From Minisyncoccota bacterium (lineage in GTDB: Bacteria; Patescibacteriota; Minisyncoccia; UBA6257; JAKLIH01), in contig JAQVPP010000001.1 in assembly GCA_028702045.1 (NCBI GenBank), forward strand, positions 1 to 44,301: 44,301 nucleotides of DNA. Reading direction: 5' to 3'. The notes below the pieces were generated by a model. That model ran no database searches. It saw only the letters and a list, made by a program, of their open reading frames with translations, and was not told where the DNA came from. Of the stretch, positions 1-44,301 are shown one piece after another (the stretch's first letter is position 1; every line of letters begins with the position of its first letter). Position numbers and translations under genes: made by a program.

Positions 1-2
1 CA

Positions 3-548
3 ATTTATTTTCATGAAATAAAAAATGCATATAAAAGCCACAATATGAAAATATGTAAAAAACCTGAAGTGTCCCCATGAGGCTTAATTGATTTAGCTAT
101 TCATCACAAAAAATCATTAAATACAAAGAATAAGAGTGATAAAGATGTTATTTATTGTATTTTTGACGTAGATCAATTTTTCCAAGAAAATCAAAAAGAG
201 TTTTTAAAAGGGATAAAAAGGGCTCAAGAAAATGAAATATATTTAATTTTCTCTAATAAATGTTTCGAGTTATGACTATTACTACATTTTCAAGAAATAT
301 ATAACTGTATGAGTGCTAAAGAATTAGAGAGGCAACTAAAAAAATATATTCCTAAATATCATAAAGGATATAATATTTACCCTGAAATTAAAGATAAAAT
401 GCATAACGCAATAAGAAATAATAAAAAAATTTTTAATATTGATTATACAAAAATTGATTGGCAACAATGGTTAAGTGATAAAAGTAATCCCTCAACAAAT
501 TTTTATCAAATAATTGATAAAATACAAAAAATGCACGAAGAAAATTAA
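3..548 (+). CDS. RloB-like protein, C-terminal part (5' end outside window)
   Basis: Frame-3 ORF is open from the window edge. In-frame TGA at 78-80 and 273-275. The segment IYLIFSNKCFEL[TGA]LLLHF matches the RloB-family SNxCFE-W-LLLHF signature as I recall it. Ends in TAA at 546-548. Confidence 0.55.
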
Positions 549-571
549 AAACACTGAGTAAATCAGTGTTT

Positions 572-991
572 TTAATTAATAGTTATTGCCCTTTTTTCAT
601 ACTCAATTATTTCAATATTAATAATTAAGGGCTTATATTGTTTTAAAAACTTGGATCCATCAGCCCATTCTAAAACAATTAAATTATTATTATCATTAAC
701 CAACTCTTCTATTCCTAAGCTTTTTAAATTAATATCAATTTTATCAATAAACCTATAGCAGTCAAAGTGATGTAGGTTTTTATTTTTAGAAATATATGAT
801 TTAAGTATAGTAAAAGTAGGGGAGGTTATGTTTTTCTCTATATTTAATGCTTTAGCTATTCCTTTTGTAAACTCTGTTTTACCTGCACCCAACTCTCCAT
901 TTAAAATAATAATATTTGTACTCAAAGAATCTACTATTTCTTTAGCTATATTATGAGTATCTTCTACTGTATTTGATATATATATTTTCAT
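572..991 (-). CDS. tsaE: tRNA t6A biosynthesis ATPase TsaE (YjeE family)
   Basis: 139 aa. P-loop LNGELGAGKTEF, then SPTFTI and HFDCYR motifs typical of TsaE. Confidence 0.85.
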   Translation of the reverse strand: MKIYISNTVEDTHNIAKEIVDSLSTNIIILNGELGAGKTEFTKGIAKALNIEKNITSPTFTILKSYISKNKNLHHFDCYRFIDKIDINLKSLGIEELVNDNNNLIVLEWADGSKFLKQYKPLIINIEIIEYEKRAITIN

Positions 992-1078
992 AAAATAAAA
1001 ATATCATATTTTTTTAATTGTGTAAATTTGTTTTTTAGAGTATACTATCAATAGACTAACTTTAGAAAGGAGAATAGA

Positions 1079-1291
1079 ATGGATCCTAAATTGACAAACG
1101 AGGAAATAATTAGTTTTTGGGAGAAATTATTCCAAAAGGCAATGAATGAGGCTTCTGGGATGTCCTGGGAAGAATGGGACAAGGAGGAAGCAAATAGATG
1201 TGACTATTTTCTTCCTTCTCAACTGAACTATATCATCAGATGAGAAAGGAGTAGAAGCAAGTGTGTAAAAGGGACACTTGCTTTTTATTAG
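1079..1291 (+). CDS. small hypothetical protein (54 aa to the TGA, 70 aa if TGA is read through to TAG)
   Basis: ATG at 1079 is preceded by AAAGGAG (1066-1072). The acidic, Trp-rich product uses TGG three times. The only TGA (1241-1243) lies immediately before a terminator hairpin. The region is visibly GC-richer than its neighbours. Confidence 0.3.
1255..1288 (+). terminator. intrinsic terminator
   Basis: Stem AAGCAAGTGT / ACACTTGCTT with a 9-nt loop, followed by a T-run. Confidence 0.7.
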
Positions 1292-1363
1292 AAAAAATAA
1301 AAATATTACCTTCTTTTTTCAAAAATTTGATATACTTAATATATATAAAATTAAAATAAAATC

Positions 1364-2705: not shown

Positions 2706-3608
2706 ATGAAAACAGACATAAAATTTAAAATTAAAAATGAAAATGATTATTTAACAATATATACAGATAGACCAGAAGTTATTTGTGGTGTAAATTTTGT
2801 ATATATACCACAAAATCATAAATTAATTGATAAATATAAAAATAAGATTAAAAACTATAACGAAGTTGCAGAGGCTAAAAAAGATATTAAAATAGAAGGT
2901 TTTAATCTTATTAATCCACTTACAAATACAGTAGTAGATATTTGACTAAGTAATGATAAAAAAGATGTTGTAATGGCAGTTCCAGCTCATAATGATGATG
3001 ATTTTGAGTTTGCAAGAAAACATAATATCAAAATGATTCCTGTAATAGAGCAAATCACAGGAACCCCAAGAGAAAATGAAAAATATAAACAAAGTATAGT
3101 GGCTGTGGTCAGAAACCCAAAAACAAATAAATATTTAACCATTAATTGGGGCAAAGATTTAGGTGGAAGACTCTTAATAGGTGGATCAATTAATGAAAAC
3201 GAAACACCACTAGACTGTGCTGTAAGAGAAATTAAAGAAGAAACTGGGTATAAAAATCTTAAATTTATTCAAGAAATATTTCCGATTAATCATCATTATT
3301 TTGCTTTTAGTAAGAATCAGGCCCATAACATAGATTGTACTGGTTTTTTATTTGATTTAATTGATGAAGAAAAAACAGAACAAAATCTAGATGAAGAAGA
3401 AAAATTTAAAGTTGAATGAGTTGAAAAAAGTACCATACAACAAGAAATTAAAGATGAGCTTCACAGTACTGTTTTTAAAAATTGTTTAAGCCCTAGGGCC
3501 TACACAGGAGATGGCAAAATAATAAATTCAGGAATTTTAAACGGTTTAAATAAAGAAGAAGCAACTAACTTAGTTATCAAATTTTTAAAAGAAAATGAAC
3601 AATGTTAA
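2706..3608 (+). CDS. LeuRS CP1 (editing-domain)-like protein with an inserted Nudix hydrolase domain
   Basis: Track ORFs 2706-2945 and 2973-3419 plus a tail to TAA at 3606-3608 share one frame, joined through TGA at 2943 and 3417.
- N-terminal part: YLTIYTDRPEVICGVNFVYIP...NPLTNTVVDI[W]L...VVMAVPAHNDDDFEFARKHNIKMIPVIEQ parallels LeuRS TTRPDT...IPVWAA...AVMAVPAHDQRDYEFA...IKPVI.
- Middle: Nudix box GGSINENETPLDCAVREIKEETGY.
- C-terminus: AYTGDGKIINSGILNGLNKEEA parallels LeuRS G-L-NSG-FNGL.
- No HIGH or KMSKS catalytic motifs. Confidence 0.7.
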
Positions 3609-4041
3609 TTTTTTTAAAAAAATTATATATAAATTTATTAAAATATACTGAAAAGTATTTAAACCACAAACCTGTGGTGTAAAAGTAATTATCGAAAATA
3701 AGGGAAAGCTTGTATATATAATTAATAATTATGGATCTAAATTAAAAAATTTACCAGGTGGCAAGATAGAAAAGAATGAAAACCCAATACAAGCAGGAAT
3801 TAGAGAAGTGAAAGAGGAATTAGATATAGATATTTTTGATATTCAAAATATAGATCTAATATTTTCAAATAAAGAAGGCAAAAGAGATACAATATTTATT
3901 ATATATGCTAAAACAAAAGCAGAAACCTTTAATATTGATAAGTTTGAAATACTAGAAGCAAATTGGTTTTCTTTAAATGATTTATCTGGTTTTTGTACAA
4001 CTGCACAAAAAATTTTAAAAATATTTTTAAAAAATAACTAA
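3595..4041 (+). CDS. Nudix hydrolase
   Basis: ATG at 3595 is in frame with track ORF 3808-4041 through a TGA at 3649-3651. Nudix box GGKIEKNENPIQAGIREVKEELDI. Overlaps the previous gene by 14 nt. Confidence 0.7.
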
Positions 4042-5950: not shown

Positions 5951-6502
5951 ATGGAAGATTATATCCCAATAACAAAACTTAACGATTTTATTTTTTGTCC
6001 CCTTTCTTTATATTTTAGATCTTGTTATAACAAGTTTAAAGAAAATCTTTTTTATCAAGAGAAAATAATAGAGGGTAAAATGGAACATGAAAAAATACAC
6101 CAAGATAAATTAAAAAATAGGTGAAAATTAATCAATTTTCCAGTTTATAGCTCTTACTATAAATTATTTGGAAAAATAGATGAATATGATGAAATAACCC
6201 AAGAATTAATAGAGTATAAAAATAACATAAACAAAGTTTATGATGGATATAAAATGCAATTATATGCACAGGCAAGATGTCTTGAAACAATGGGATATCA
6301 AGTTAAAAAAATAAAACTAAAATCCATCCAAACAAAAGAAGAAATAGAAATTGCTTTGCCATCCCGTACGGAAATGAAAAAATTTGAAAAATTAATTGAA
6401 AATATTAGATATTATGATATTTTTAAATACTTAAAATACCAAAATAAATGTCAAAATAAATGTCGTAAATGTATATACAAAGAACTTTGTAACGATGATT
6501 AG
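5951..6502 (+). CDS. cas4: CRISPR-associated exonuclease Cas4
   Basis: - One in-frame TGA (6122-6124).
- N-terminal Cys (FCPLSLYF).
- GKID and IEYK, i.e. the D...ExK nuclease core.
- C-terminal Cys cluster CRKCIYKELC.
- Lies directly upstream of cas1-cas2. Confidence 0.8.
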
Positions 6503-6504
6503 TT

Positions 6505-7464: not shown

Positions 7465-7468
7465 AAAT

Positions 7469-12701: not shown

Positions 12702-12780
12702 AGAAACAGAAGAAAATTAATTAGAAAAAAGTAATAAATAATAGTGTTCTTATATAAAAGCGACACTTAGGAAAATTCAG

Positions 12781-12972: not shown

Positions 12973-15900
12973 ATGAACACAAAATATTTTTCAGATATTT
13001 TTAACAAATATCAAGTAAGTAAAACCATTAGGTTTAGTTTAAAGCCTCAAGGAAGAACGAGGCAAACCTTGGAGGACAACAATATTATACCTAAAGACTC
13101 TTTAATATACAAAAGTTATTTACAAACAAAACCATATCTTGATGACATCCACAGGAAAATTATTCAACAAGGTTTATCAAAAATAGAGATTGAGATTTTT
13201 AAACCAATTACAGAATTATATTATCAGAAAAATATAAAAACTAATAAACAGGACAAAGAATGAAAAAGCACGAGAATACAAACATGCAAAGAAATTAATA
13301 GATATTTTCAAGAAGAAAAAGATATTTTAAAAAAGAAATATGACTCAAAGAACAAAGATTTTATTTGTTCTGGTAAAGTTTTAAATTATCTAAAGGATGA
13401 ATACCCCGCAAATAAAAGTAAAATTTTTGAGCAACAAGGGTTCCCCAGTTTATTTATCGAATACCAAGGTAAACACAAATATATATTTGATGTATTTGAT
13501 AAAATAACAACATATTTAATTCAATTTAACAAAAACAGAGAAAATCTTTATGAAAATGGAGATAAACATTCTTCAGTAGCATCAAGAGTGCTCAATAATT
13601 TTATTACTTTTTTAAATAATATCGACAAATATAAAAAATTACAAACTATAGAAGAATTAAAATTTTCCTCGGAAGAAAAAGATATTTTTCAAATAGAAAA
13701 TTATGTTTTTGCTTTAACTCAAGATCAAGTAAATAATTACAATAAAAATGTAGGAATATTAAACAAAAAAATTAAAGAAGCACGAGATAAAAATAAAAAA
13801 CTAAATCAAGAAAATTTTATAAAATCAAATTATGTTTTGCTAACTACTTTAGATAAGCAAATTTTAGGTAAAGTGAGTGCGGAAGACAACACAATAAATA
13901 ATAACCAAGAATTAAAAAAAGAGTTTGAATTATTTATACATAAAAGCAATATTTTTAAAGACGATTTTAAAAAATTTATAGAAAATTTCAAAAAACACAT
14001 TTTTATTAAAGAATATGAACATATTTTTTTGTCAAAAAAAATTATAAATACAATTTCTTATAAGTGATTCAAAAACCCTGAAAGTTTTGAATTTGCATTA
14101 CCCCAATCTTCGTCAAGCAAAAATAAAGAATACCCGCATCTTAAATCAATGATTTCTTTGTCAGAAATACAAAATGCATTAAACAATAATACACAAGTAG
14201 AAGGAAAGATATTCAAAGACAAGTATTATGAAGATCTATTCAAAAATCAAAATACTTTAAATAATAAAGATAATTATTTTGATCAATTTTTAGAAATATG
14301 GGAATATGAAGTAAATAATTTAATCCAAAAAACTCAAGATAACAATATAGAGATTGACTGAAATATTTTTAATCAATGCACAAGAAAAGACAAAAAATAT
14401 CAAAACGAAGTAGGAAAAATGAAAACTACGATAGATAATTTTTTAAGAGTTTATCAAATGGCTAATTATTTTCATATTTCACAAAAAAATAAATTAGCCT
14501 TTTCAGACTATTTTTACGGAGAGTTTTATTCTTTTTTTAATGAGTATAGGTTTAACGAATTCTACAATGCAATTAAAAATTTTTTAACAAAAAAAGAAAA
14601 TCAAGAGAATAAAATTAAATTAAACTTTGATTGTGGAACACTTTTAAGCGGGTTTGATAAAAATAAAGAAAAGGATAATCTAGGGATAATTCTAAGAAAA
14701 AAACAAAAATACTACCTAGGTATTTTGGTTAAAGGATATACTTCTTGTTTTGAGGATAAAAACTTGCCAAAAGAAGGAACAGATTATTATGAAAAAATGA
14801 CTTATAAACTATTCCCAGGTGCATTTAAAATGATTCCAAAGATTGCATGGGCCCCAACAAATCAAAAGCTTTTTAATCCATCTGATCAGCTTAAAACATT
14901 AAGGCAAGAATACAAAGAATATCAAGATGCAAAAAAAACCCAGAAAAACAACAAAATTCAATTTAGCGCAACGAAATTAGCAAAACTTATAGAATATTAT
15001 CAAAAAGTTTTACAACTTAGTGGGCATCAATCAGAGTTTAATTTACAATGAAAAGATCCTGCTGAATATTCAGGATTAGGTGAATTTAACAATGAGATTG
15101 ATAAGCAAGGTTATAAAATTAATTTTGATCAAAAAATTAACAGTGATTATATAGATAAATTAGTAGAAGAGGGTAAGCTATATTTATTTCAGATATATAC
15201 TAAAGATTTTTCAGAAAAATCTAACAAAATAAATAAAAATTTAAATACTTTGTATTTTTTAAATTTATTCTCAGATGAAAATATTAAAAATAAAGAGAAA
15301 AAAATTAAATTGTCAGGTAATGCAGAAATATTTTTTAGGCCAAAAAACAAAAAACCTAATAAAAAAATTGATAACAAGGGCAATTCTATTGTAGACCATA
15401 AAAGATATGCAGAAGATGCATTTTTATTACATTTATCTATTGTTTTAAATAACAATGTTCCTTCTCCTCATGCAGGACTTGAAAAATCGTTTAATCAAAA
15501 TATTAATGAAAAAATTATTGGAGACAAAAATGTTAACATCATTGGAATAGATAGAGGAGAAAAACACTTATTATATTACAGTGTAATTAATCAAAATCAA
15601 GAAATATTAGAACAAGGTAGTTTGAATACTATTAATGGTAAACCTTATTTTGATTTATTAAATCAAAGAGAAAAAGAAAAACTAGGACAAAAGCAAAGTT
15701 GATTTGCCATAGGAAACATTAAAGATTTAAAAAAAGGGTATTTATCCGAAGTTGTTAAAAAAATATGTGATCTAGTGGTTCAATATAATGCCATTGTGGT
15801 TTTAGAAAACTTAAATATGAGATTCAAGCAAATTCGTGGGGGGATTGAAAAAAGTGTTTATCAACAATTTGAAAAAGCATTAATAGATAAATTAGGATAT

Positions 15901-16857
15901 TTAGTTTTTAAACAATTAAAAGCTAGTGAAGCAGGGGGGGTTATTAATGGATACCAACTTGTGGCCCCTTTTGAATCTTTTGAAAAAATGGGAAACCAAA
16001 CAGGCATCTTATTTTATACTCAAGCAAATTATACATCAATTACAGACCCTCTAACTGGTTTTAGAAAGAATATTTATATTAGTAATTCTTGAAGTCAAGA
16101 AAAAATAAAAGAAAACATCTATAAATTTACTAGAATTTATTGAGATGATATAGAAAAAAGCTTTGTATTTACTTATAATCCAAATGATTTTGTTAATCAA
16201 AAAATTAAAAAACAAAAGTTTAAATATCGAGATTGTAGTGTATATTCTAAAATACCCAGGATAAGAAGATATAGAAATGAGAAAGATCATTGAGAATATG
16301 AAGTAATAGACTTGAATAAAGAATTTAAAAACTTATTTGAAAGTTGAGGAATAAATTATAAAGCAGATAATATAGTCGAAGAGATTAAGAATAATGAAAA
16401 AAATTTAACAGGCAAAAAAACAATTTTTTTACAAAATAGTAGTATAAATAAAAATTTCTTTAACCAATTTATATATTTATTTAATTTAATATTACAAATA
16501 AGAAATTCTTTTTCCAAAAAATATATTATAGATATTGATAAAAATACAGGAAAAGAAACAATAACACAAAAGGGAGAAGATGTTGATTTTATAGCATCTC
16601 CAGTTAAGCCTTTCTTCTCAACTTTTGCTCAAGATTCTAAAAGTCAAATAATTTCTCCGCTAAATTTACAATCTATTAAAGAAAGAATTATAAGTAATGA
16701 CAAGGACAGAATAGCGAGGGAATTTAATGGAGACGCCAATGGTGCTTATAATATAGCTAGAAAAGGAATAATTCTATTAAACAAAATACGTGAAAACACC
16801 GAAAAACCAGATTTATATATTTTTAAGGAAGATTGAGACAAATTTAATAATCAATAA
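12973..16857 (+). CDS. cas12a: Cas12a (Cpf1) type V-A effector, 1294 codons, 10 in-frame TGA
   Basis: - Six track ORFs (12973-16092) plus a tail to TAA at 16855-16857 are all in frame 1.
- The only interruptions are TGA at 13261, 14065, 14359, 15049, 15700, 16090, 16141, 16291, 16345 and 16834.
- N-terminus KTIRFSLKPQGRT.
- FNKNRENLY motif.
- KLFPGAFKMIPK (PAM-interacting region).
- GKLYLFQIYTKDFS.
- RuvC-I IGIDRGEKHLLYY.
- RuvC-II AIVVLENLNMRFK.
- Nuc LQIRNS.
- RuvC-III GDANGAYNIARKG. Confidence 0.93.
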
Positions 16858-17002: not shown

Positions 17003-18679
17003 ATGAAAATTAATAAAAAAACCTTAATTTTTTTATTATTAATTATCTCAGTAATTATTACTATTTTTATGGTTTTTAACACAATTAAAAAACCAAACAT
17101 TCAAATAAAATTAAGTGCTCCAGAAAGTATAAAGTCAGGAGAAGTATTTGATTTGCAGATTGTTATTGAAAACAAATCAAATCTAAATATTAAAAACGCT
17201 GAAGTTTTTTTAAAAACTCCAAACTCAGTTAAGCTAATTGATTCTGACCCTAGTTTTGAAATTGAAAAACTAGACTCAAATGAAAAAGTTGAAAAAACCT
17301 TTGCTCTTCTTGGCACAGGAAAAGAATTGCAGGATCTAAACCTATCTGCAGTACTAAAGTATTCTCCAGAAAACATAAAAAGTTATTTTGAAATTAAGGA
17401 AGATATAGATGTCATAATCAGAGGCAACATTTTTGATTTAAAATTAACTGCCATATCTAAAACATTACCTGAAAATGATTTCAGAGTACTTGTAGAATAT
17501 GATAATTTATCAGGTAAATATTTTGATAACTTAAACTTACATCTACAAAGTTCGCTAAACTATAATGTAATTAACTCTACTATTCCTTTCAAAGACAATA
17601 GTTTCTATATAGGTGCTTTACCTAAAGAAACTAAAGGCACTTTAGAGATAATGAGTTCCTTCTCAGGCAAAGGTGGTAACGAGGAAAAACTCACATTCTG
17701 CCTAGGTTATGAGCACAATGGAGAATTCCTATGTATAGCTGAAAAGAATCTATATGTAGATGTGCTAGAGAATCCTCTAGAAGTTAATTTAAGTATACCT
17801 GATAATTTAAATCCAGGTGATACAGCTAAGATAGTAGTTACATATAAAAATAATTACACAGTTCCATTATCAAATCTAGAATTGAGTATTCTACTAGATC
17901 ATAAGTTATTTGATGCTTCTAAAATAAAAATAAATAATGGCTACTACAACTCATATTTGAAAACAGTATTTTTCAAACCAGCCAATATTCCATCACTAGC
18001 TAGAATTAGTTCTGGAGAACAAGGTCAAGTTAGTTTTGAGATAGGAGTTAAGGACAACTATATTATCAAGAGTTATACAGACAAAAACTTTAGCCTAAAT
18101 ACCAAAGCCTTTGTCCAAGGTAATGTTGTCTTAGATGGCAAGCACCAAAACATACAGGCTAGTGATCAACAACAAATAAAATTAAATACTAAAGTAGACT
18201 TTATCAACTATATGAAGTTTAGGGATAATGAGACTGGTATCATTAACTGTGGATCACTTCCATTAAAGCCAAATCAAGAAACTTGCTTTACTGTACACTG
18301 AGCGCTAAAGAACTACTATAACGACTTAAAGAATGTAAAGATAATAGCTAAACTATCACAGGGAGTAACCTATACAGGTAGATATATAGGTGGATCAGAT
18401 GTAGAGTATAATGCAGACAAACAAGAGTTTATCCTCTATCTAGATTCGGTTAAGGCTGGTAACGGCTTTATCATAAAACCAGATGAGTTCATTTTCCAAA
18501 TCAAAACAATCCCATCTACAAGTGATATAGATTTGCCAAAAAGTATCTTTGACAGTATCAATATAGAGGGAATAGATACATTTACCAATGAACAAATTAC
18601 CTTTAGTTTAAGTGGGTTTAACACCAATATCCTCAACGACTCTAGTATTTTGGGTGGATATAATATAGTATTTGAATAA
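17003..18679 (+). CDS. large secreted or cell-surface protein with N-terminal membrane anchor
   Basis: Track ORF 17003-18301 continues in frame through a TGA at 18299 to TAA at 18677-18679 (558 aa). N-terminal TM segment, then beta-rich repetitive sequence with no catalytic motif. Confidence 0.55.
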
Positions 18680-18688: not shown

Positions 18689-19996
18689 ATGGAAAACAAA
18701 ACAGAAATATTAATCAATTTAGCAAAAAAAAGAGGCTTCATAAATCAATCATCTGAGATTTATGGAGGATTTTCCAGCTCATATGATTATGGTCCACTAG
18801 GATCTCTTCTAAAAAATAAATTAAAAGAACTTTGGCTAAATAATATGATTAAAAGTGATCTAGACATAGTTCCTATTGATTCAGCTATCATCATGTCTCC
18901 TAAGGTTTGAGAAGCATCAGGCCATGTCTCTAATTTTGTTGACAGTCTAGTAGAATGTAAGGAATGCCACAAAAGATTCAAACAAGATGATGTAAAAGAT
19001 AGTTGTCCTGTATGTGATGGAGAACTATCAGCTCCAAAGAAATTTAATATCTTAATGAAAACATATATTGGTCCAGTAGAGGATAGTGCTAGTCTTGCTT
19101 ACCTAAGAGGTGAGACATGCCAGGGTATTTTCACTAATTTTAAGTGAATCAAATCATCCATGAGGAAAAAAATACCTTTTGGTATAGCTCAAATAGGTAA
19201 GGCATTTAGAAATGAGATAACTCCAGGTAACTTTACTTTCAGAACAAGAGAGTTTGAGCAAATGGAGATGCAATATTTTGTTAACCCAGACAAAGCAGAC
19301 ATATATTTTGATCTTCTTAAACAAAAAAGAATGCAGTTCTATATTGACCTTGGATTTAAAAAAGAAAACCTAAGATTCAAAGATCATGATCATTTAGCTC
19401 ACTACTGTAAAAGGGGATGTGATATAGAGTATAACTTTCCTTTTGGCTGACAAGAGATAGAAGGTATACATAACAGAACTGACTTTGATCTTACTCAACA
19501 CTCTCTATATAGCAAAAAAGATTTACAGTATTTTGACGAAGATAGCAAAGAATCATACACCCCTTATGTGATAGAAACATCTTGTGGTTGTGATAGAGTA
19601 TTACTTGCTATCCTATATGATGCCTTAGACGGAGAAAATTTCTCTTTCCCATATATCTTAGCTCCATACAAGGTAGCAGTACTTCCTCTTGTAAAAAATA
19701 AAGAAAAAATTGTCAAAAAAGCAAAACAAGTATATACTCAATTAAAAGACAATTTTATGGTAGATTATGACCAAACAGGGTCAATAGGTAAAAGATATGC
19801 CAGACAAGATGAAATAGGTACCCCATATGCAATAACTATAGATTTCATGTCTTTAAAAAATAATACAGTAACTATCAGAGACCGTAAAACAAAAAAACAA
19901 TCACGCATTAAAATTAATCAATTAAATGATTACCTTTTAAATAATAAAAAGTCATCTTTTATACAAAAAATATATAACTTATTATGCAAGAAATAA
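18689..19996 (+). CDS. glyQS: glycine--tRNA ligase (class II, alpha2 type)
   Basis: Three track ORFs share one frame, joined through TGA at 18908, 19145 and 19448. Motifs: [67 protein letters not shown]. Confidence 0.9.
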
Positions 19997-20973
19997 AAAT
20001 TTCATGACAAACACTAATAAGAGTAGTATTACTCATCTTATTGTGTATAGGTGTCTGATATTTTAAAAATATTCTTCTAGCTGTACTTGCTGCTTTGATT
20101 TTATCAGCCAGCCTGGAAGGCCCAATTAGATTTTTTGAAAAATATAAATTTAAAAGAGGTCTGGCAGTTAGTATTACTTATTTTATGCTCTTACTAGTAA
20201 TAGCATCTGTTTTATATATTTTTATTCCTTTATTGTTTAACAATATAGTTAATTTAGTTTCCGAGTTTCCTCAACTAGCTACTTCAGAAGTTATCAACAT
20301 GGTATCCAAGTATGGAGAACTTAATTACTACCTAACCCAAGGAGGTCTTTTTGAAACAATACTAAATGTATATAAGAATGTATCTTTTATCTTTTCTTCT
20401 ATAGGTACCCTTACTTTAGTTTTCCTTTTCTCTTTTTATTTCTCTATTCAGAAAGATTGATTTAAAAACTTCTTAGCTTTTATGCTAGAAAATAATAAAT
20501 ATAAAAATTATGTTATTGATTTATGACAAAGAAGTGAAAATAAAATGAGAGTTTGGTTATATAGCCAATTAGTTATTAGTTTTTTCGTAGGTGCCTTAAC
20601 AGGTCTTGGTCTTCTAGTAGTAGGTAGTAATTATGCCTTGTTAGGAGGTCTTTTGATGGGAGTACTTGAGTTTATTCCATATATTGGTCCAATACTGGCT
20701 ACTTTGTCCATAGCCTTACTACATATATCTCAAGGCTGAGTTATTTTAGCTTTTGTTTTAGGTGTATCCATTGTTGTCCAATATATAGAAAATTTAATTT
20801 CCCCAATAATCAGAAGCAAACTATTTAAAATGGATCCAGTTATCATTATCTTTGGAATAGCTGTCTTTGGTAAAATAGCAGGTATACTTGGGGTAATTAT
20901 ATCTATTCCACTAATGTATATGATAATGGAGTTCGTACGTGATGTAAAAAAGAAAAAAATTAGTTTTGAATAA
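19984..20973 (+). CDS. AI-2E (PerM/YhhT) family membrane transporter
   Basis: ATG at 19984 is in frame with track ORFs 20095-20460 and 20545-20739. Five in-frame TGA; TAA at 20971-20973. Multi-pass hydrophobic profile with the EFIPYIGP motif. Confidence 0.65.
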
Positions 20974-27179: not shown

Positions 27180-28469
27180 ATGTATAAATATAAAATAACA
27201 GAGCTAAACAATGGTTTAAGAATAATAACAGTTCCTAATAAAGATAAAAGAACCTGTCTTTTTAAAATAATTGTAAAAACAGGAGCAGAGTATGAGAAAT
27301 ATGACCAACAGGGTATATCGCATTTTATAGAACATACATTTTTTAAAGGAACCAAGGAGAAAACAAAACAAGAAATATATACAGAAGTAGAGTCTTATGG
27401 AGGAAAGATTAACGGTAGAACAGATAATTTAATTACCCAATATTTCATATGAGCTCCAAGTAGATACCAAAATAACATAATAGATTTATTATCTGATATT
27501 TTCTTAAATTTTAACTATACCAACAAAACTATAGAAGAAGAAAAGGGTGTTGTTTTAGCAGAGATATTAAGAAAAAAAGAAAAAGTTGATTTCAATAATT
27601 CAATATTATTAAGAAAAAGTTTTTTTGGAGAAAGCAATCCAGGTGGCTGACCAACTCTAGGTGATCAAAAAAGTATTAAAAATATGAACAGGGAAATCAT
27701 TGCTAAATATATAAAAGATAATTATATAGCAAGTAATATTGTTATTTTAATGGCAGGAAATATTAATGAAAAACAAGTTATACAAAGAATATCTAGTAAA
27801 TTTAATCATTTGCCACTAGTTAAAAGTAAAAAGAAAAATAAAGTTAAATTTATCAATACAAGTCAAGAGGTTATAATAAATAAAAATCATCAAAAACAAG
27901 TAAAAATTGAAATTTGATTTCCTTTTAAAGATATGTTTTCTGAAGACAAGTATCCAGCAAAACTAATATGTAGTCTTAATAACCACAGAGGTTGAGACAA
28001 AAGTTTAAAATATCAGCTTAGAGAGTTAAATAGTTTAATATACTCTATGAGTATAAGAACAAATTGTTTTTTAGACTATGGATTTTTTTGCATCACAATT
28101 CCAACTGATAAGAATAATATTGAAAAATGTCTAGATATAACCCTAAAACAACTCAATTATTTAAAGAATAATAAAATTGATAAAAAAATAATACAAGAGA
28201 GGGTTACATCTCTAATTAATAATACAGATTTTGCGTTTGATAATTTTTATGAAAGAGCCAAAAACATAGCTGAATCGATAGTTCTAAAGAATAAATATGA
28301 AGAACTAGAGAGTATTATGGAAAAATTTAAAAAAATAAATCAAAATGATTTGCAAAAAGTAGCTAAACAAACATTTAATTTTGATAAAATGAAAATATGT
28401 ATTAGCGGTAATGTAGATAAAAAGGAGACTGTTTCTAAAGTAAAAGAAATTATAAGAAAAAACTCCTAA
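27180..28469 (+). CDS. M16 family zinc peptidase (pitrilysin-like)
   Basis: Three track ORFs share one frame with 4 in-frame TGA. Zinc motif HFIEH (HxxEH) followed by FKGT. Confidence 0.8.
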
Positions 28470-29342: not shown

Positions 29343-29363
29343 ACAAAATAAAATAATATTATG
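29335..29363 (+). repeat. 29-nt exact repeat spanning a start codon (copy 2)
   Basis: Identical to 28483-28511. Confidence 0.8.
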
Positions 29364-30842
29364 TCACTAAAGCAAACTAAGAAATCAATTTTTGATTATA
29401 TAGCCTCCATGAGTTATGGAATAATGAAATTAGTCCGTATTTTAAAAGATAAGGCATTTGCTTTTTATGGGAAAATTCTTTTAAAAGATATTCAAAAAAA
29501 TATGTACATCATAAGCATCACTGGAACTAAAGGTAAGACAACAACTATAGATGTACTTTGTCATATACTCAAAGCTTTAAATATTAAATTTTGTGCATAT
29601 ACTACAAGTTTTGAGATAGTTAATGATAAGAAAACAGATCATGTAGACAAATCATCTTTTTTAAGTAAGCAATCAAGGTCTACTATGCCAGGTAGGGCAG
29701 CAGTACATAAGTTTATCAAAAAAGGATATGATAATGGTGCCAGAGTTGCCATCATAGAATCCACCTCAGTAGGGCTATATCAACATAGGGGTGACTATAT
29801 TGAGTGAGATTTAGCAGGATTCACAAATCTACAACCAGAGCATCTAGAGATGCATGGAAACAGTTTTGAGAAATACAAAAAAGCTAAAGGAATTTTATTT
29901 AGACAACTAGGTAATCACAAGGATAAAAGAATTGAAAATGAAAAAGTCTGCAAAACAATCATAGCTAATCTAGATGATGAAGTATCTGAGTACTTTCTAT
30001 CTTTTTCAGCTAAAGAAAAAATTGGTTTTTGTCTAGATAAAAATATAGAGCAAAAAAGTAAAATTATGGGCATAGATTTATTTAAACCAGATTCTTATCA
30101 AATAGACAATTCTGGAATAAACCTATTCTTTGAAAAAGATAATTTAATCATCAAATCTCCACTACTTGGTAAGTTCAATGCATATAACCTTATGTTAGCC
30201 TACTTAATTGCGTATAAAGTAGTTAATACTTTTAAGCTTGATAATGTAAAAGAGACAATATTAGAGTCAATACAAAATTATCAAGGTCCAGAAGGCAGAA
30301 TGAACTTTCTCAAAACAACAGACGGCCTAACCATAGTAGTTGATTATGCTCACACACCTGATTCTTTAGAAAATGTATATTCCACTCTTCAGAAATTAAA
30401 CTACAACAAAACTATTGGCATATTAGGTTCATGTGGAACTATGTTACGTGCAGTCAATCTACAGGGCATAACCAAGTCAGGAGGAGTAAGAGATATGGGC
30501 AAGCGTAAAGTTATGGGTCAAGTAGTAGAAAAATATTGTGATAAAATTATATTAACTAATGAGGATCCATATGGTGAAAATATTATAGATATTATAAACG
30601 ATATAGCTCAAGGTATAGAGAATAAAGATAAAATAATTAAAATAGAAGACAGGCAAGAAGCAATTAAGCGAGGAATTGATTTATTAGAAAAAGGAGATGT
30701 TCTAGTCATTACAGGCAAGGGCAGTGAAAAATCAATTGCCATAGAAGGAGGCTTGCGCGGAAACCTTATCGAGCAAGAATGAAAGGGTGATTATAATATA
30801 GCCCTAGACTATCTAAAAGAAAAAGATAAAACAATAATATAA
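29361..30842 (+). CDS. Mur ligase family protein (MurE-like)
   Basis: Track ORFs 29361-29807 and 29850-30782 share one frame, with TGA at 29805 and 30780; TAA at 30840-30842. Motifs: ITGTKGKTTT P-loop, FTNLQPEHLEMHG, DYAHTPDSLE. Confidence 0.75.
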
Positions 30843-31726: not shown

Positions 31727-32791
31727 ATGAATTTATCAGTAGGAATAGTAGGATTGCCTAATGTAGGTAAGTCAACATTATTTAACACATTAACCAAAAA
31801 CAAAGCAGATATTGCTAATTATCCATTTTGCACAATAGACCCAAACATAGGTATTGTAGAAGTACCTGATTTTAGACTAGACAAATTAAGTTCTTTTAGT
31901 AATTCAGCTAAAACTATACCAGCTATAGTTAAGTTTGTTGATATAGCTGGACTTGTTAAAGGAGCAAATAAAGGAGAAGGATTAGGTAATCAATTTTTAT
32001 CTAACATTCGTGAAACTCATTCTATCATATATGTATTACGTGCTTTTAAAAATGAAAAGATTTTAAATGTCCTGGACAAAGTAAATGTAATTGAGTCTAA
32101 AGAAATACTAGATACAGAACTTGCTTTAAAAGATCTAGAGACAATAGAAAAAAGACTTTTCTCTTTAAAAAAGGATGCTAAAAGAGGTAACAAAGACGCT
32201 ATTAAAGAAGTAGAGGTATTAGAGAATATAGAGAGTAAGCTAAAAGAAGGGAATTTAATCAGAGATCTAGATCTATCAGATAATGATAGACAAATACTTA
32301 AGCAATACTCTTTCTTAACAGCTAAACCTTGTCTTTTTGTCCTAAATGGCAAAGATGATGAGGTGGATCCAGAAATAAAAGAATATTTTACTAAAAATAA
32401 TTTCAAGTATATCATCATAGATATTCGTGATGAGTATGATATTGCTAACTTATCTGATTTAGAAAAAGAAGAGCTAGGCATAGAAAATAAATCAGAACTA
32501 GATATACTTATTAGAGAATCATACAAGCTTCTAGATTTGATTACTTTTTTCACAACAGGACAAGATGAGACAAGGGCCTGAACAATCAAAAATAATACAA
32601 AAGCTCCAGACGCAGCAGGTGTAATTCATAATGATTTTAAAGAAAGATTTATTAAAGCAGATACTATTAATTGGCAAACACTAATTGATTCTGTATCTTG
32701 AGAAAATGCTAGAAGCTTAGGATTAATCAGATCAGAAGGCAAGGAATATTTAGTACAAGATGGAGATGTTCTAGAAATTAAACATAATTAA
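31727..32791 (+). CDS. ychF: redox-regulated ATPase YchF
   Basis: Track ORF 31727-32581 continues in frame through TGA at 32579 and 32699 to TAA at 32789-32791. Motifs: GIVGLPNVGKSTLFN, FCTIDPN, VDIAGLVKGA, and C-terminal GKEYLVQDGDV. Confidence 0.9.
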
Positions 32792-32792: not shown

Positions 32793-33647
32793 ATGATATT
32801 TGATTCACACACACATTTACAATTCAATGCTTTTGAAAACGATCTCAATGATCTTGTTTTCAAATTAAAACAAAATAATATTTATTTAATCAATGTGGGG
32901 TCCAATATAGAAAACTCTATTAAGTCTATAGAGTTAAGTAAGCAATATGATTTTATGTATTCTTCTGTAGGCATACATCCAGTATCAGTTTTACCACAAG
33001 AGAGCCTATATGATAAAGATGAGAGCAAAGAAAAAATAGACGAGACAAAACAAGTAGTAGATAATAATTTTGAAAAACTCATTCTTAATGAGAAGGTGAT
33101 AGCAGTAGGAGAATGTGGCCTAGATTATTCATATATAGAACACTTAAACTTAAGTGAAGAAGAAAAGGAAAATCTTAAACAAAAACAAATTAATATTTTT
33201 AAAGATCAAATAAGATTAGCTCAAAAACATAACAAAACTCTTATCCTGCATATAAGAGATCTGTATAAAGAGGCAATAAACATATTAAAACAAGAAAACT
33301 TTACACAAAAAGCAATATTTCATTTTTTTAAAGGAGATAAAGATATAGTAGAAGAGATATTAAAGAATCCAAATTGATTTTTTGGTTTTTCAGGAATAAT
33401 CACATATTCAGATTCCCTTAACAATATAATCAAAATGATACCCCTAAGTAGAATGTTAATTGAAACAGATGCTCCATATGTCTCTCCAGTGCCAAACAGG
33501 GGACAAAGAAACGATCCAACCAATTTAAAATATATTATTCAGAAAATTAGCACTATTCTTGATGTTACAATGCAAGAAGTAGAAGATCAAACATTTCAAA
33601 ATGCTTTTTATGTGTACAACTTAGAGAATTTGACAAATTTAAGATAA
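32793..33647 (+). CDS. tatD: TatD family metal-dependent hydrolase
   Basis: Track ORFs 32793-33377 and 33435-33647 share one frame, joined by a TGA at 33375. Motifs: DSHTHL, GIHP, GECGLDY, LETDAPYVSPVPNRGQRNDP. Confidence 0.85.
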
Positions 33648-34663: not shown

Positions 34664-34686
34664 CATATAAATTAAAAATAAATAAC

Positions 34687-36769: not shown

Positions 36770-37408
36770 ATGGGAAAAAATATAAAAGATATCGTAAAAA
36801 ATATGCCTTTATTTTCCAAACAAAATATAGCAATATATTATAAAGGGAAAATTAATACATTAAACGCTCAGATTAAATATGCTTTTAAGACTGGTGATAT
36901 TTTAAAGCTTAAAAATGGACTTTACATGTCTAATGATTTTTATATTAGAACTAAAGATAAAGATGGTTTAAAAGAATATATTGCTAGTCAATTAAAAAGT
37001 CCTTCTTATTTAAGTCGAGAATATGTTATGCAAAAATATAATTTACTAACAGAAGCAATATATGGCATTACTTCGGTTACGTTAAAAACTAGGAAACAAT
37101 ATCAGAATTTTTTAGGATCTTTTATTTATTATTCTATAAAAAAAGATTTTTATTTTGGATATGATGAAAAAAGATTTCTTTCTAATGTTTATTTTGAAGC
37201 TAATAAATCTAAGGCAGTTTTTGATTATTTATATCTTAAAAAAAATATTAGTAAAAATTTAAAGCAAGAAATTTTGGAAGATTTGCGTATTAATTGAGAA
37301 AATTTTTCAAAAAATGATTTTAATTTATTTTATGATTATTGTTTAAAATCAAAATCCAAAAAAATGAAACGTATTGCCAATATTTTAAAAAAAAGTATTT
37401 ATAAATAA
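36770..37408 (+). CDS. abiEi: AbiEi-like antitoxin / transcriptional regulator
   Basis: Track ORF 36770-37297 continues through a TGA at 37295 to TAA at 37406-37408. About 210 aa and lies directly upstream of an AbiEii/DUF1814 gene. The LKNGLYM segment resembles the AbiEi N-terminal domain. Confidence 0.55.
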
Positions 37409-38406: not shown

Positions 38407-38472
38407 GTTGCACTTCGGAGTAGAATCCGCCCTTAGGGGGTTGACAATTTAATAAAAGTATGTTAACATAAT
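38407..38472 (+). promoter_or_regulatory. promoter cassette copy 3
   Basis: GTTGCACTTCGGAGTAGAATCCGCC lies 34 nt upstream of TTGACA (38441-38446), followed by a 17-nt spacer and TGtTAACAT. Confidence 0.55.
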
Positions 38473-38476
38473 TTTA

Positions 38477-38747
38477 TCAATATTTTGGCTTCCTCTTGCC
38501 AAAAAAGAGGAGAGCAAGAAAGGACATTAATGAAAATTATTAGTGAAAATCAAAAAAAGAGAACCAGAGAAGTTGTAGTGGTGAGAGGGAACAAGTCCCG
38601 AACACTGCACATAAAAAAAATAGGAGGACAATGGTTCTCTTTCTTGGGGATTGATCAAAAAGGAAAAAGGATTTTTAAGCCCTTTTCTCCTTAATTCTCC
38701 CCACTCGCACTAAGACCCAAACGAGTATAAATAAGGGTCTTTTTTTA
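38477..38747 (+). other. GC-rich transcription unit D: either a structured RNA of about 270 nt or a 54-aa basic peptide (ATG 38530 to TAA 38694)
   Basis: Driven by cassette copy 3 and ends in the terminator AAGACCC/GGGTCTT plus T7 (38712-38747). An internal hairpin CCTCTT/AAGAGG and the AGAGGAG...ATG arrangement leave coding status unresolved. Confidence 0.35.
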
Positions 38748-38793
38748 TTTCCTCTTTTACTTATATGTATCTAGTTGCTTGTAACGATTTTCT

Positions 38794-38841
38794 TATTTAT
38801 ATCATAAAAATGAAATATGTGCGGTGACATTACCTTAGGGG
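38794..38841 (+). repeat. 48-nt direct repeat R2
   Basis: TATTTATATCATAAAAATGAAATATGTGCGGTGACATTACCTTAGGGG. Abuts TTGACA at 38843. Confidence 0.8.
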
Positions 38842-38842
38842 G

Positions 38843-38871
38843 TTGACAAAAAATAATCAATATGGTATATT
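38843..38871 (+). promoter_or_regulatory. sigma-70 promoter (TTGACA-17-TGgTATATT)
   Basis: Consensus -35 element, 17-nt spacer and extended -10. Confidence 0.6.
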
Positions 38872-38877
38872 ACTAAA

Positions 38878-39067
38878 GTAAAAATAAACAGCACAATAAC
38901 CTGTAGGCAACAGACTTTTTAATTTTTTAAATATATTGAAAAAAATATAAGTCTTGTAAGGGTTGTCGTTGATGGGTATATCTGGTTCCGACTGGGTTAC
39001 GCCTCTTCACTTCTCGTGATTCTTTACTCTAAGTAAAGATTTTGCCTGCGGATTATTGTGTTTTTTT
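38878..39067 (+). ncRNA. candidate structured ncRNA E (about 190 nt)
   Basis: - A 19-bp closing helix, CACAATAACCTGTAGGCAA (38892-38910) with TTGCCTGCGGATTATTGTG (39042-39060), has 2 G-U pairs and 1 mismatch.
- Internal hairpins AGACTT/AAGTCT and TCTTTACT/AGTAAAGA.
- A T7 run follows.
- No ORF. Confidence 0.45.
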
Positions 39068-39137
39068 ATTAAAAAAGTTTGAAAATTTTTAAAATAATAT
39101 GTTAAACTTAATATATATTAAGTTTAATTTTTAATGT

Positions 39138-40711: not shown

Positions 40712-42202
40712 ATGAATTATTTTCCTTTAAAAACAAAGCATATAGATATAGACACTGATGATGGTTTCAAGGTTGTTGTAAATGACAACACTGCTTTAAA
40801 ATATTCTTTAAAAAATAAAGATACTATTTATTTTTATTTCAATAATCAAGAGGTATATGCTGAAGTATTTACCACAGCCTCACTACTAGGTGATGATGAG
40901 ATAGGTCTATGTCAAGGACTAAGAGAAATATATGATATCCCAGAAAATGAAATTTTAAAAATATATTTTGCAGAAGAGTCTCTAGGTTTAAAAGCTATTC
41001 ACAAAAAACTTTTAGGCAACAGATTAACTTATGAGGATTGTTTAAACATAATGAACGATCTAGTAGTTAACAAGATTAATGATGTAGAGACTGCCTTTTT
41101 CATTGCTCTTGGTTTTCAGAAAAATCCATTTACAATTCAAGAACTCTGTTATCTATCCAAAGCACAAGCCGTAGTAGGTGATTGCTTAAAGTTTAATGGC
41201 ATAGTTGCAGACAAGCACTCTGTAGGAGGTCTCAGTGGTAATAGGACTACACCTATAGTTGTAGCTATTGTTGCTAGTTTTAATATTATTATCCCTAAAA
41301 CATCATCTCGTGCCATTACTTCAGTGGCAGGTACAGCCGATACTTTAGAGACAATAATGGATGTATCTTTTAGCACTAATGAGATATATAAGCTAATTGA
41401 AAAAAACAATGCTTGTATGATCTGGGGAGGGGCCATCAACTTATCTCCAACTGATGATATTTTTATTAAAATAACCAAAGATTTAGGCATAGAACCAACA
41501 TATAAATTAATTACTAGTATCTTATCTAAAAAAATAGCTACAGGCGTTAATAGATTAATTATAGATATCCCAGTTAATAAAACAGCCAAAGTAAAAAGCA
41601 TAAAAGAGGCCCTAAAGGTTAAAAAAATGTTTGAAAAAGTGTCAAAGTTTTTAAAAATTAAAACAAAAGTTATTATCTCTAAATCAACAGGTATAATAGG
41701 TAATGGTGTAGGTCCTGCACTAGAGATTAGAGATGTCTTGCGTGTACTTCAGCAAAAAGAAAATAGATCAATAGATCTAGAAGACAAGGCAGTTAATCTA
41801 GCAGGAAGCTTACTTAACTTATGTGGAATAAAAAATGGAGTTAAGCAGGCTAGAGAAAGTCTAAAAACAGGTAAAGCCTTGCTCAAGTTTAGGGAAATCA
41901 TAGATGCACAAAATGGTGACTATAATATAGATTCTGAAGATATACAATTAGCTAAATATTCATATGAGTTTAAGTTAAATAAAAAGGGCATAGTCCCTGA
42001 GTATAATAATGATGACATAGTAGATTTATGTAAGATGCTAGGTGCTCCACAAAACAAGCGCTCTGGAATATATTTTAATAAAAAAACCAATGAAAATTAT
42101 ACCTATGATGATGTTATCTTTACCATATATTCAGACAATGAGAGTAGGATAAATATAGCTAAAGATATTATTAAAGAAACTTTTGATCCATTATTTAAAT
42201 AG
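40712..42202 (+). CDS. AMP phosphorylase / thymidine phosphorylase family protein (archaeal DeoA-like, with N-terminal extension)
   Basis: 496 aa. DKHSVGGLSGNRTTPIVVAIVAS...PKTSSRAITSVAGTADTLE is typical of the family. The extra N-terminal domain of about 85 aa matches archaeal/CPR AMP phosphorylases. Confidence 0.75.
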   Translation: MNYFPLKTKHIDIDTDDGFKVVVNDNTALKYSLKNKDTIYFYFNNQEVYAEVFTTASLLGDDEIGLCQGLREIYDIPENEILKIYFAEESLGLKAIHKKLLGNRLTYEDCLNIMNDLVVNKINDVETAFFIALGFQKNPFTIQELCYLSKAQAVVGDCLKFNGIVADKHSVGGLSGNRTTPIVVAIVASFNIIIPKTSSRAITSVAGTADTLETIMDVSFSTNEIYKLIEKNNACMIWGGAINLSPTDDIFIKITKDLGIEPTYKLITSILSKKIATGVNRLIIDIPVNKTAKVKSIKEALKVKKMFEKVSKFLKIKTKVIISKSTGIIGNGVGPALEIRDVLRVLQQKENRSIDLEDKAVNLAGSLLNLCGIKNGVKQARESLKTGKALLKFREIIDAQNGDYNIDSEDIQLAKYSYEFKLNKKGIVPEYNNDDIVDLCKMLGAPQNKRSGIYFNKKTNENYTYDDVIFTIYSDNESRINIAKDIIKETFDPLFK

Positions 42203-42204
42203 AG

Positions 42205-42239
42205 AAAAAAACCAAATTAGTTGTCTAATTTGGTTTTTT
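42205..42239 (+). terminator. intrinsic terminator
   Basis: AAACCAAATTAG / CTAATTTGGTTT stem, TTGT loop, T-run. Confidence 0.8.
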
Positions 42240-42422
42240 ATGGTAAACTAATCTTGTATATGTTATACATATACAAAGCTAATTAATCATTTAACCTATT
42301 AATTCAGAAATATTTGTAATTAAGTGGATTGAAATTTTAACTGTGAAATTATTTAAACTTTTAAATTTTAAAAATCTAATGATATTCTGCAAAGAATAGG
42401 TTTTTTAATAATAAAAACTAAC

Positions 42423-43967
42423 ATGATAGACTATATAATTTTTACAATAGCTGGTATTGCAGTTGGTTATTTAATTAAGCATATTTCTGTAAAATCAAAA
42501 AACAATTCTATAGAAACAAAATTAAATTCAACTATACAAGCTAAAAAGGAAGAGGCTAAGAAAATAATCCTAGACTCCAAGGAAGAATCTAAAAAAATAA
42601 TTTTAGAAGCTGAAGAAAAAGCAGCTGATATCTTAAAGGAATTAAGAAAAGAAGAATCAGTTATCAAAGATAAGTTAAATAAAACTGAGGACAGACTTCT
42701 TAAAAAAGAGGAGTTTATAGATCAAAAACAACTAAACATTGATAAAGAAAAAGAAAAACTTAATCAAGATATTGAGAAAGTTCAAAGCATCAAAGAAAGT
42801 ATTGAAAAAATAAAACAAGAAACAGAAGAAAAGTTAAATAAAGTATCAGGTCTTTCTAAAGAAGAGGCTAAGAATCTTTTATTACAAAAAATAGAAGATG
42901 AGTCAAAAGATGATCTTTACCAATATGTTAAAAAATTAGAAACAACCAATAAGGAAGAAATAGAGAAAAAGGTTCAAAATATAATGCAAACAGCAGTACA
43001 GCGTTATGCTCATGAGAATAATTCTGAAAACCTAATCACAACAGTTGCCTTGCCAAATGAAGAAATCAAAGGTAGGATAATTGGTAAGGAGGGAAGAAAT
43101 ATACATCATTTTGAAAAAATCACAGGAGTAGAGTTAATTATAGATGACACTCCAGATGTTATTACTATCTCATCATTTAACCCTGTAAGAAGAGAAGTGG
43201 CTCGTTTGGCTTTAGAAAAATTAATTCAAGATGGTAGGATTCAGCCAGCTAAAATAGAAGAAAAAGTAGCTTGAGCAGAAGAAGAGATCAAGAAATTAAT
43301 TAAAAAAGCAGGCGAAGATGCTATTTATGAAATAGGTATATTAGATTTACCACAAGAATTAACTTTCTTACTTGGTAGATTAAACTACAGAACCAGTTAT
43401 GGCCAAAATGTACTCAGACACTCTTTGGAAGTAGCTAGTTTGGCCTCCATGATTGCTTTAGAGCTAGGGGCTAATGTAGATGTAGCTAAAAAATCAGGAT
43501 TACTTCATGATATAGGTAAATCCATTGATTATGAAACAGAAGGTACTCATGTTGAGCTAGGTAAGAGGATTTTACAAAAATATGGCGTTAAAAAGGAAAT
43601 TATTGATGCCATGGAGTCTCATCATGAAGATGTACCTATTAGTAGCTTAGAAGGGGCTATTATAGCTGCTGCAGACGCTATTTCTGCTTCACGTCCAGGT
43701 GCAAGAAAAGAGTCTTTGGAAAAATACTTAAAAAGACTACATGATCTTGAGGAAATTGCTAATGTATTTAACAAAGTAAAGAAGAGTTATGCTATACAAG
43801 CTGGTAGAGAGATTAGAGTATTTGTTGATGCAGAGAATACAGATGACTACACACCCCTAAAACTAGCTAAAGACATTGCTAAAAAAATAGAAGAAGAACT
43901 AAAATACCCAGGTGAGATTAAGGTCGTAATCATTCGTGAGAAAAGAGCTATAGAATACGCAAGATAA
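42423..43967 (+). CDS. rny: ribonuclease Y
   Basis: - Track ORFs 42423-43274 and 43425-43967 share one frame, joined by a TGA at 43272.
- N-terminal TM segment and coiled coil.
- KH domain [11 protein letters not shown].
- [22 protein letters not shown].
- HD domain LLHDIGK. Confidence 0.92.
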
Positions 43968-44044
43968 AAAAAACGTTGATTTTATTTGACTTTTTTAAAT
44001 TTTCTGTTAGAATCTTAATAATAAATTAATTAAATTTTTGTACT

Positions 44045-44301
44045 ATGAAAAAAGACAATATGGTAGAAATTGTTCAAGACCAATTAAAAGTAACAAAAAA
44101 AGATGCAGAGAATGTTGTTAACACATTAATTGAACAAATGATCTCTACACTTAAGAAAGGTGAAGACATCACAATTTCAGGTTTTGGAACATTCGTAGTA
44201 AAGCATCAAGAAGCTAGAATGGGAGTTAATCCAAAAACAGGTGAAAAAATTAGAATTGCTGCTAAAAAGGCTGTTAAGTTCAGAGCAGCTAAAGGCCTAA
44301 A
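44045..44301 (+). CDS. hup: HU/IHF family DNA-binding protein (3' end outside window)
   Basis: ISGFGTFVVKHQEARMGVNPKTGEKIRIAAKKAVKFRAAKGL is typical of HU. Confidence 0.85.
   Translation, partial: MKKDNMVEIVQDQLKVTKKDAENVVNTLIEQMISTLKKGEDITISGFGTFVVKHQEARMGVNPKTGEKIRIAAKKAVKFRAAKGL

Follow-up and report, generated by a model that had tools for sequence, protein, structure and literature searches.

UGA very probably stands for tryptophan throughout a Minisyncoccia contig of the Patescibacteriota

What does the codon UGA mean to the organism that contributed contig JAQVPP010000001.1 of assembly GCA_028702045.1? The contig was analysed over its entire length of 44,301 bp (GC content 27%), and we refer to this whole stretch of DNA as the window. 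That UGA might be a sense codon here came from an original prediction, which held that the fragmented genes of the window rejoin when TGA is read through, and that TGA stands for Trp (translation table 4) rather than for Gly (table 25). Our analysis leads to the same answer with high confidence: the window very probably belongs to a member of the Patescibacteriota, or Candidate Phyla Radiation (CPR), of the class Minisyncoccia/Paceibacteria, which uses genetic code 4 with UGA reassigned genome-wide from stop to Trp. This view rests on comparative sequence evidence, which we set out below.

When open reading frames (ORFs) were called with TGA as a sense codon, the whole contig (1..44301) resolved into 38 ORFs, nearly all of them on the plus strand, with 11,566 sense codons, and the longest ORF, previously 500 codons, grew to 1297. 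There are 54 in-frame TGA codons, spread over 21 of the 38 genes, and 19 TGG codons; if both mean Trp, TGA makes up about three quarters (74%) of the Trp codons in the window, and the share of Trp among all codons rises from 0.16% with TGG alone to 0.63% with TGA and TGG together. The stops of the 38 ORFs, counted in the window only, are 34 TAA (89.5%), four TAG (10.5%) and no TGA. The fragments thus rejoin in one frame and the merged genes end in TAA or TAG, as had been predicted, and the earlier counts of TGA codons were exact (10 in cas12a, five in the AI-2E/PerM gene, four in the M16 peptidase gene and three in the gene of glycyl-tRNA synthetase, GlyRS). ORF coverage is not discriminating by itself, because in DNA of 27% GC coverage is inflated just as well when TAA is read as sense. 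What we regard as decisive is that in-frame homology runs on through every TGA that can be tested: it is uninterrupted in Cas12a, GlyRS, the GTPase YchF, the M16 peptidase, the TatD-family hydrolase, the MurE-like ligase and the editing domain of a LeuRS-like protein.

Which amino acid UGA represents is indicated by the residues that homologues carry at the same positions. We aligned the proteins of the window with an X placed at each TGA and scored the 28 columns that had at least four aligned homologues. The homologue sets comprised 14 Cas12a, 120 GlyRS and, from an exhaustive HMMER search, 25 M16 peptidases; YchF and other genes were compared in 109 related genomic loci among the matches listed, and solved structures served as alignment partners for TatD, MurE and LeuRS. 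Log-odds summed over the 28 columns in the manner of Codetta give +44.3 nats for Trp, -14.3 nats for the runner-up, Phe, and -34.8 nats for Gly. Trp is the commonest residue in 10 of the 28 columns and accounts for at least half of the residues in nine; aromatic residues reach that share in 15 columns and Gly in two. As a control, Phe and Leu codons of the window fall on Trp-dominated columns in about 2% of cases, compared with 5 of 17 for TGA. The original prediction had suggested tabulating the TGA columns, and the tally against homologues favours Trp.

The clearest columns come from GlyRS (glyS, 18689..19996, plus strand), which has three TGA codons. At codon 74 (18908-18910), in the motif PKV-X-EASGH, all 120 homologues have Trp, and at codon 254 (19448-19450), in FPFG-X-QEIEG, 108 of the 120 do, so that both of these predicted Trp positions stand. 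Codon 153 (19145-19147) is aligned with Trp in each of the 18 closest homologues, among them the entire neighbour-joining sister group, and with Asn in chains of the Protein Data Bank (PDB) and in most of the remaining homologues. GlyRS homologues contain 8.4 +/- 0.9 Trp residues each, and the GlyRS of the window has one TGG and three TGA. Immediately upstream, a 558-residue membrane-anchored protein (17003..18679, plus strand) carries a TGA at codon 433 (18299-18301), where nine of nine syntenic homologues have Trp. Downstream of glyS lie genes for PerM, SmpB and PilB. The first of these, an AI-2E family (PerM-like) transporter (19984..20973, plus strand), has five TGA codons: Trp is found in four of six homologues at codons 8 and 181, Leu, Tyr or Phe at codon 25, and a mixture at codon 252; codon 159 (20458-20460) is taken up below.

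Cas12a (12973..16857, plus strand; 1294 codons) has ten TGA codons, none of which falls on a Gly column. Columns of Trp or of aromatic residues are found at codons 365, 910 (15700-15702), 1057, 1107 and 1288 (16834-16836), with Trp in 13 of 13 homologues at codon 910 and in 12 of 13 at codon 1288. The original prediction had assigned three Cas12a sites to Trp columns, and the alignments agree in each case: Trp is found in 13 of 13 homologues at QKQS-X-FAIGNIKD, in 8 of 10 at KDH-X and in 12 of 13 at KED-X-DKF.

The remaining recoded genes give a similar picture. YchF (31727..32791, plus strand) has TGA at codon 285 (32579-32581), within the predicted counterpart of RAWT (ETRA-X-T), where Trp is present in 27 of 27 homologues and where the homologue of Malacoplasma, a code 4 organism, likewise has TGA; its second TGA, codon 325, is aligned with aromatic residues among CPR relatives. 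In the LeuRS-like gene (2706..3608, plus strand), codon 80 (2943-2945), in VDI-X-L, aligns with the Trp of IPVWAAN in E. coli LeuRS, again as had been predicted. The product of this gene joins a free-standing CP1 editing domain of LeuRS type to a NUDIX hydrolase domain, an uncommon architecture, and the next gene (3595-4041) likewise encodes a NUDIX protein; the fusion might be a trans-editing factor. In the MurE-like Mur ligase (29361..30842, plus strand), codon 149 (29805-29807) is matched by Phe, Phe, Ile and Phe in solved MurE structures, and in the TatD-family hydrolase (32793..33647, plus strand), codon 195 (33375-33377) is matched by Phe or Tyr in PDB chains and by Phe in six of eight loci. 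RNase Y (42423..43967, plus strand) has TGA at codon 284 (43272-43274), a position that is also TGA in the recoded relative L032; a PDB search found no RNase Y structure covering this region.

The M16 peptidase (27180..28469, plus strand) is more varied. Of its four TGA codons (91, 157, 246 and 272), codon 157 (27648-27650) corresponds to Trp in the nearest homologues, and codon 272, in HRG-X-D, to Met or Leu in a MAFFT protein alignment and to Ser (7 of 10) or Met (3 of 10) in a tblastn search against the loci. Three sites had earlier been singled out as places where Gly is common. That reading holds for M16 codon 246 (27915-27917; IEI-X-FPF), where 20 of 25 homologues have Gly, yet the two closest have Ser and Ile; it fails for TatD, which has Phe or Tyr, and for HRG-X-D, where Met, Leu or Ser is found and Gly in neither of these two alignments. 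Alignments to PDB chains alone proved misleading, as they presented GlyRS codon 153 as Asn and, by way of a gap, M16 codon 272 as Gly; the deeper alignments return Trp in the nearest GlyRS homologues and Met or Leu in M16.

A further line of evidence comes from a gene that has no TGA in the window. The AMP phosphorylase gene (40712..42202, plus strand) encodes Trp238 as TGG (41423-41425), at a position that is Trp in 117 of 117 homologues. Two metagenomic contigs syntenic with 39.1-44.3 kb of the window, L032 (81% identical in AMP phosphorylase) and L033 (69% identical; sampled in sea water overlying a cold seep of the South China Sea), have TGA at this same codon. Such an interchange of TGG and TGA is expected only if UGA means Trp, and therefore supports the assignment. 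Sense UGA was also found in a second public contig from a metagenome-assembled genome (MAG), L119 (GCA_964507765.1, CAZDQI010000015.1; GC 26.8%), which has 51 TGA and 12 TGG in 4,498 codons and whose 12 complete genes all end in TAA or TAG. The GlyRS of L119 has seven TGA at Trp columns, three of them shared with the columns of the window. The two enzymes are only 59% identical, so L119 belongs to another genus or to a lineage still further away; in PerM and SmpB, the window resembles L119 more closely than it does the standard-code loci. By comparison of sequences we have shown that UGA serves as a frequent sense codon standing for Trp, and ends no gene, in this contig. The predicted preference for Trp over Gly is upheld by the summed log-odds together with this interchange at an invariant Trp.

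Where does the organism belong? The best matches of YchF, GlyRS and AMP phosphorylase are MAGs of Paceibacteria/Parcubacteria; those that are named are assigned to Paceibacterota, Nealsonbacteria, Parcubacteria or Minisyncoccia, and none is affiliated with Absconditabacterales/BD1-5. The name given to the source by NCBI is "MAG: Candidatus Pacebacteria/Paceibacterota bacterium". YchF is 59% identical to a MAG protein and 55% to that of a Nealsonbacteria MAG, with 59-47% across the Patescibacteria, compared with 41% for Malacoplasma. GlyRS is at most 60% identical to its best matches, and AMP phosphorylase at most 49% outside its clade; among the matches listed, a metagenome scan with GlyRS returned standard-code relatives only, at up to 59% identity. 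The gene content is CPR-like, with AMP phosphorylase, a pair of PilB genes and few biosynthetic genes. The earlier impression of a CPR-like rather than a Mollicute genome is thus well founded, with identities of 55-60% to Paceibacteria against 41% to Malacoplasma. L120 and L121, which by GlyRS are the nearest relatives, employ the standard code; both have a gene with a PCRF/RF-1 domain just downstream of glyS (L120:12121-12894; L121:12390-13262), followed by ftsE and ftsX. This gene is probably prfB, its called ORF being shortened by the programmed frameshift. Since the window is not syntenic with these two loci downstream of glyS, the comparison says nothing on loss of release factor 2 (RF2).

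Reassignment of UGA to Trp has already been reported in this part of the tree. In April 2026 it was described for JAKLIH01, a family in the order UBA6257 of the class Minisyncoccia (Nucleic Acids Res 2026;54(7):gkag327, PMC13092985). In the four JAKLIH01 genomes analysed, Codetta strongly supported the reassignment, RF2 was absent and UGA was not used as a stop, and two of the four had a tRNA(UCA); for GCA_028702045.1 (genus JAQVPP01), 150 Codetta columns, a tRNA(UCA), absence of RF2 and stops of 88.2% UAA and 11.8% UAG were given (PMC13092985). A gTranslate preprint of May 2026 added 12 further JAKLIH01 genomes and the genus GCA-2747955 with code 4, and named Patescibacteriota as the first, and only, phylum known with tables 4, 11 and 25 (bioRxiv 10.64898/2026.05.24.727570). 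The novelty implied by the original prediction is therefore not borne out: UGA-to-Trp reassignment in the family JAKLIH01, and probably in this genome too, was already in the 2026 literature (PMC13092985; bioRxiv 10.64898/2026.05.24.727570).

The window resembles JAKLIH01 in its reassignment of UGA to Trp, its lack of UGA stops, a share of about 88% UAA, gene calls made by NCBI and GTDB with the standard code, and, by best matches, its phylum and class; we found no feature that contradicts membership. The stops of the window (89.5% TAA, 10.5% TAG) are close to those published for GCA_028702045.1. Supplementary Table 2 of the JAKLIH01 paper pairs assemblies of one NCBI batch with RF2 protein accessions (028695015 with MDD3491526, 028711005 with MDD4994759 and 028719125 with MDD5760862), at 94.0 and 94.3 proteins per GCA unit over the two intervals. 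On this scale MDD4122700 from the window falls at about GCA_0287017xx, some 300 units from GCA_028702045.1 and some 10,000 from GCA_028691405.1, the other batch member. The accessions of the best matches did not lie near enough to the UBA6257 genomes of that table to connect the two. The JAKLIH01 paper (PMC13092985) does not describe the gene content of this contig, for example its type V-A CRISPR locus. GCA-2747955 is likewise a Minisyncoccia lineage with UGA read as Trp, there backed by Codetta columns, a tRNA-Trp(UCA) and the absence of prfB. It is a second, separate lineage in which some members still use code 11, and nothing links the window to it. Outside the CPR, the same reassignment is found in the table 4 Mycoplasmatales and in reduced endosymbionts (Hodgkinia, Zinderia, Nasuia, Stammera and Pinguicoccus/Organicella), which also use TGA more than TGG for Trp and are presumed to have followed the same route of A+T pressure, tRNA-Trp(UCA) and loss of RF2, but which belong to unrelated phyla.

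We would like to point out several observations that weigh against our assignment of the window to a code 4 lineage of JAKLIH01 type. Two TGA columns are dominated by Gly, M16 codon 246 and PerM codon 159 (Gly in four of six homologues), and several others are dominated by neither Trp nor Gly, namely M16 codon 91 (Lys), Cas12a codon 1040 (Ala or Glu) and M16 codon 272. No tRNA-Trp of any kind was found in the window or in the contigs of three recoded relatives. The neighbour-joining tree of GlyRS has no exclusive clade of the window and L119, giving 64% bootstrap to a mixed sister group. Finally, the window is linked to JAKLIH01 by accession numbers and stop-codon usage rather than by sequence identity or phylogeny. 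The two Gly-dominated sites are probably real Gly-to-Trp substitutions within divergent regions. They are also the sites of interest for any suspicion of ambiguous decoding.

By analogy with the JAKLIH01 literature and with other code 4 bacteria, UGA would be decoded by a tRNA-Trp(UCA), RF2 would have been lost, and strong A+T mutational pressure, reflected in the GC content of 27%, would have replaced TGG by TGA in roughly three in four Trp codons. The alternative that survives best keeps Trp as the meaning of UGA and dispenses with the dedicated tRNA: UGA could be read by a near-cognate tRNA-Trp(CCA), for example one whose anticodon stem has 4 bp, or be context-dependent with some UGA stops. 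The window contains no tRNA with a UCA anticodon, its only tRNA genes being tRNA-Leu(UAA) (25394-25479, plus strand), tRNA-Val(UAC) (30918-30992) and tRNA-Leu(AAG) (34579-34664); tRNA(UCA) is present in only two of the four JAKLIH01 genomes, and Ca. Zinderia relies solely on a tRNA-Trp(CCA) having a 4-bp stem (PMC13092985). Against this, the tRNA-Trp(CCA) of JAKLIH01 has a 5-bp stem and a tRNA(UCA) is present in GCA_028702045.1 (PMC13092985), while the JAKLIH01 genomes that lack it are incomplete MAGs. The absence of any ORF ending in TGA in the window argues against residual UGA stops, and a codon that supplies 74% of all Trp would be difficult to sustain by near-cognate decoding. We consider this alternative unlikely.

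Far less probable still is that UGA means Gly, as it does in Absconditabacterales/BD1-5 (GTDB class JAEDAM01, table 25), and that the Trp-like alignments are coincidental. Before 2026 table 25 was the sole recoding known in CPR bacteria, and the window does share with JAEDAM01 an affiliation to the CPR, an A+T-rich genome and a sense UGA, small genomes and loss of RF2 being features of JAEDAM01. The only columns that speak for Gly are the two among the 28 that are described above (20 of 25 homologues at M16 codon 246, four of six at PerM codon 159). The window nevertheless fails the test of Gly columns: its true Gly codons (GGN) fall on Gly-dominated columns in 51 of 84 cases (61%), compared with 1 of 17 (6%) for TGA. 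The summed log-odds run strongly in the opposite direction, the interchange of TGG and TGA takes place at an invariant Trp, and a Gly meaning would leave Trp at just 0.16% of residues. Moreover, the closest relatives are Paceibacteria, a class different from JAEDAM01.

Least credible of all, to the point of being negligible, is that the TGA codons are true stops (in pseudogenes, or through assembly and frameshift artefacts, of a decaying genome) or selenocysteine codons: the table 11 annotation of NCBI does treat them as stops, but frame and homology persist across all tested TGAs of essential genes (GlyRS, YchF and RNase Y), independent relatives, sampled elsewhere, have TGA at the same positions, it is specifically Trp columns on which TGA falls, and 54 sites in 21 of 38 genes, placed on Trp or aromatic columns, are far too many for selenocysteine.

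UGA read as Trp, as we prefer, has consequences for the public record of this contig. Its proteins were deposited as MDD4122684-MDD4122711 with a table 11 annotation. As a result of this translation Cas12a with its ten UGA codons, GlyRS, the M16 peptidase and about 18 more genes are fragmented or missed. The M16 peptidase, for example, appears as a 90-residue 'insulinase family protein' (MDD4122700.1; window 27180-27452) that ends at the first TGA; protein databases contain more such pieces, among them a 140-residue fragment from JGI that is 98% identical to residues 290-429 of the full-length protein. With the same annotation, Cas12a cannot appear as a single protein. Its closest homologue is only 41% identical. 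It forms part of a complete type V-A CRISPR-Cas locus (5951-16857) with the uncommon order cas4 (one TGA), cas1, cas2, array and cas12a. The array (7952-12701) has 75 fully identical 36-nt repeats with the end AATTTCTACTTTTGTAGAT and 74 spacers of 25-30 nt, of which 72 are unique; no spacer has a match elsewhere within the window.

The window also holds features that lie apart from the question of the code. The tRNA-Leu(AAG) gene was called by ARAGORN and scored 49.5 bits in a local Rfam search, having been missed by an Rfam scan of the whole window. A34 is uncommon in bacterial tRNAs apart from tRNA-Arg(ACG), and this tRNA could be a sign of a smaller tRNA repertoire that relies on wider wobble. 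A gene-free stretch at 38840-39075 is about 95% identical to L032:130-380, while the flanking proteins are just 70-86% identical. It has a sigma-70-like promoter (TTGACA, 17 nt, TATATT) followed by a predicted transcript of about 175 nt, whose 5' and 3' ends are predicted to pair in a long closing stem and which ends in a run of U (-54.8 kcal/mol, z = -4.65). A search of Rfam at relaxed thresholds over the gene-free 38.2-39.2 kb gave no credible family, and we regard the stretch as a candidate structured RNA of no known family. The motif CCTTAGGGGGTTGACA occurs in two copies (38430 and 38833), of which the copy at 38430 heads an ORF-free stretch of about 270 nt (38425-38750) with a GC content of 33-38% compared with 27%, a clear intrinsic terminator at its end (38712-38750) and a predicted fold with z = -3.55. 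Neither an Rfam family nor a tmRNA was called for this stretch, which may be a further small RNA gene. Among the protein-coding genes, those for defence and toxin-antitoxin functions include an RloB-like gene (3-548), truncated by the start of the contig, and a nucleotidyltransferase toxin gene of the AbiEii family (37414-38247). Ahead of the toxin gene lies its likely partner of AbiEi type (36770-37408), which is without a Pfam hit.

What we present is a single-contig confirmation and not a discovery, but it bears on how this lineage is studied. Databases derived from the NCBI record inherit the truncated proteins, and the mistranslated public record hides, among others, a full-length Cas12a with its array of 75 repeats; mining of the lineage for Cas12a orthologues or for metabolic potential requires that genes be called again with table 4. 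It is conceivable, though we think it rather improbable, that the contig or L119 lies outside both JAKLIH01 and GCA-2747955 and represents a further independent UGA-to-Trp reassignment in Minisyncoccia; if so, the capture of a stop codon by Trp would be recurrent within this class. For the phylum as a whole, UGA as Trp here and as Gly in JAEDAM01 means that one stop codon has been captured by two different amino acids inside the Patescibacteriota.

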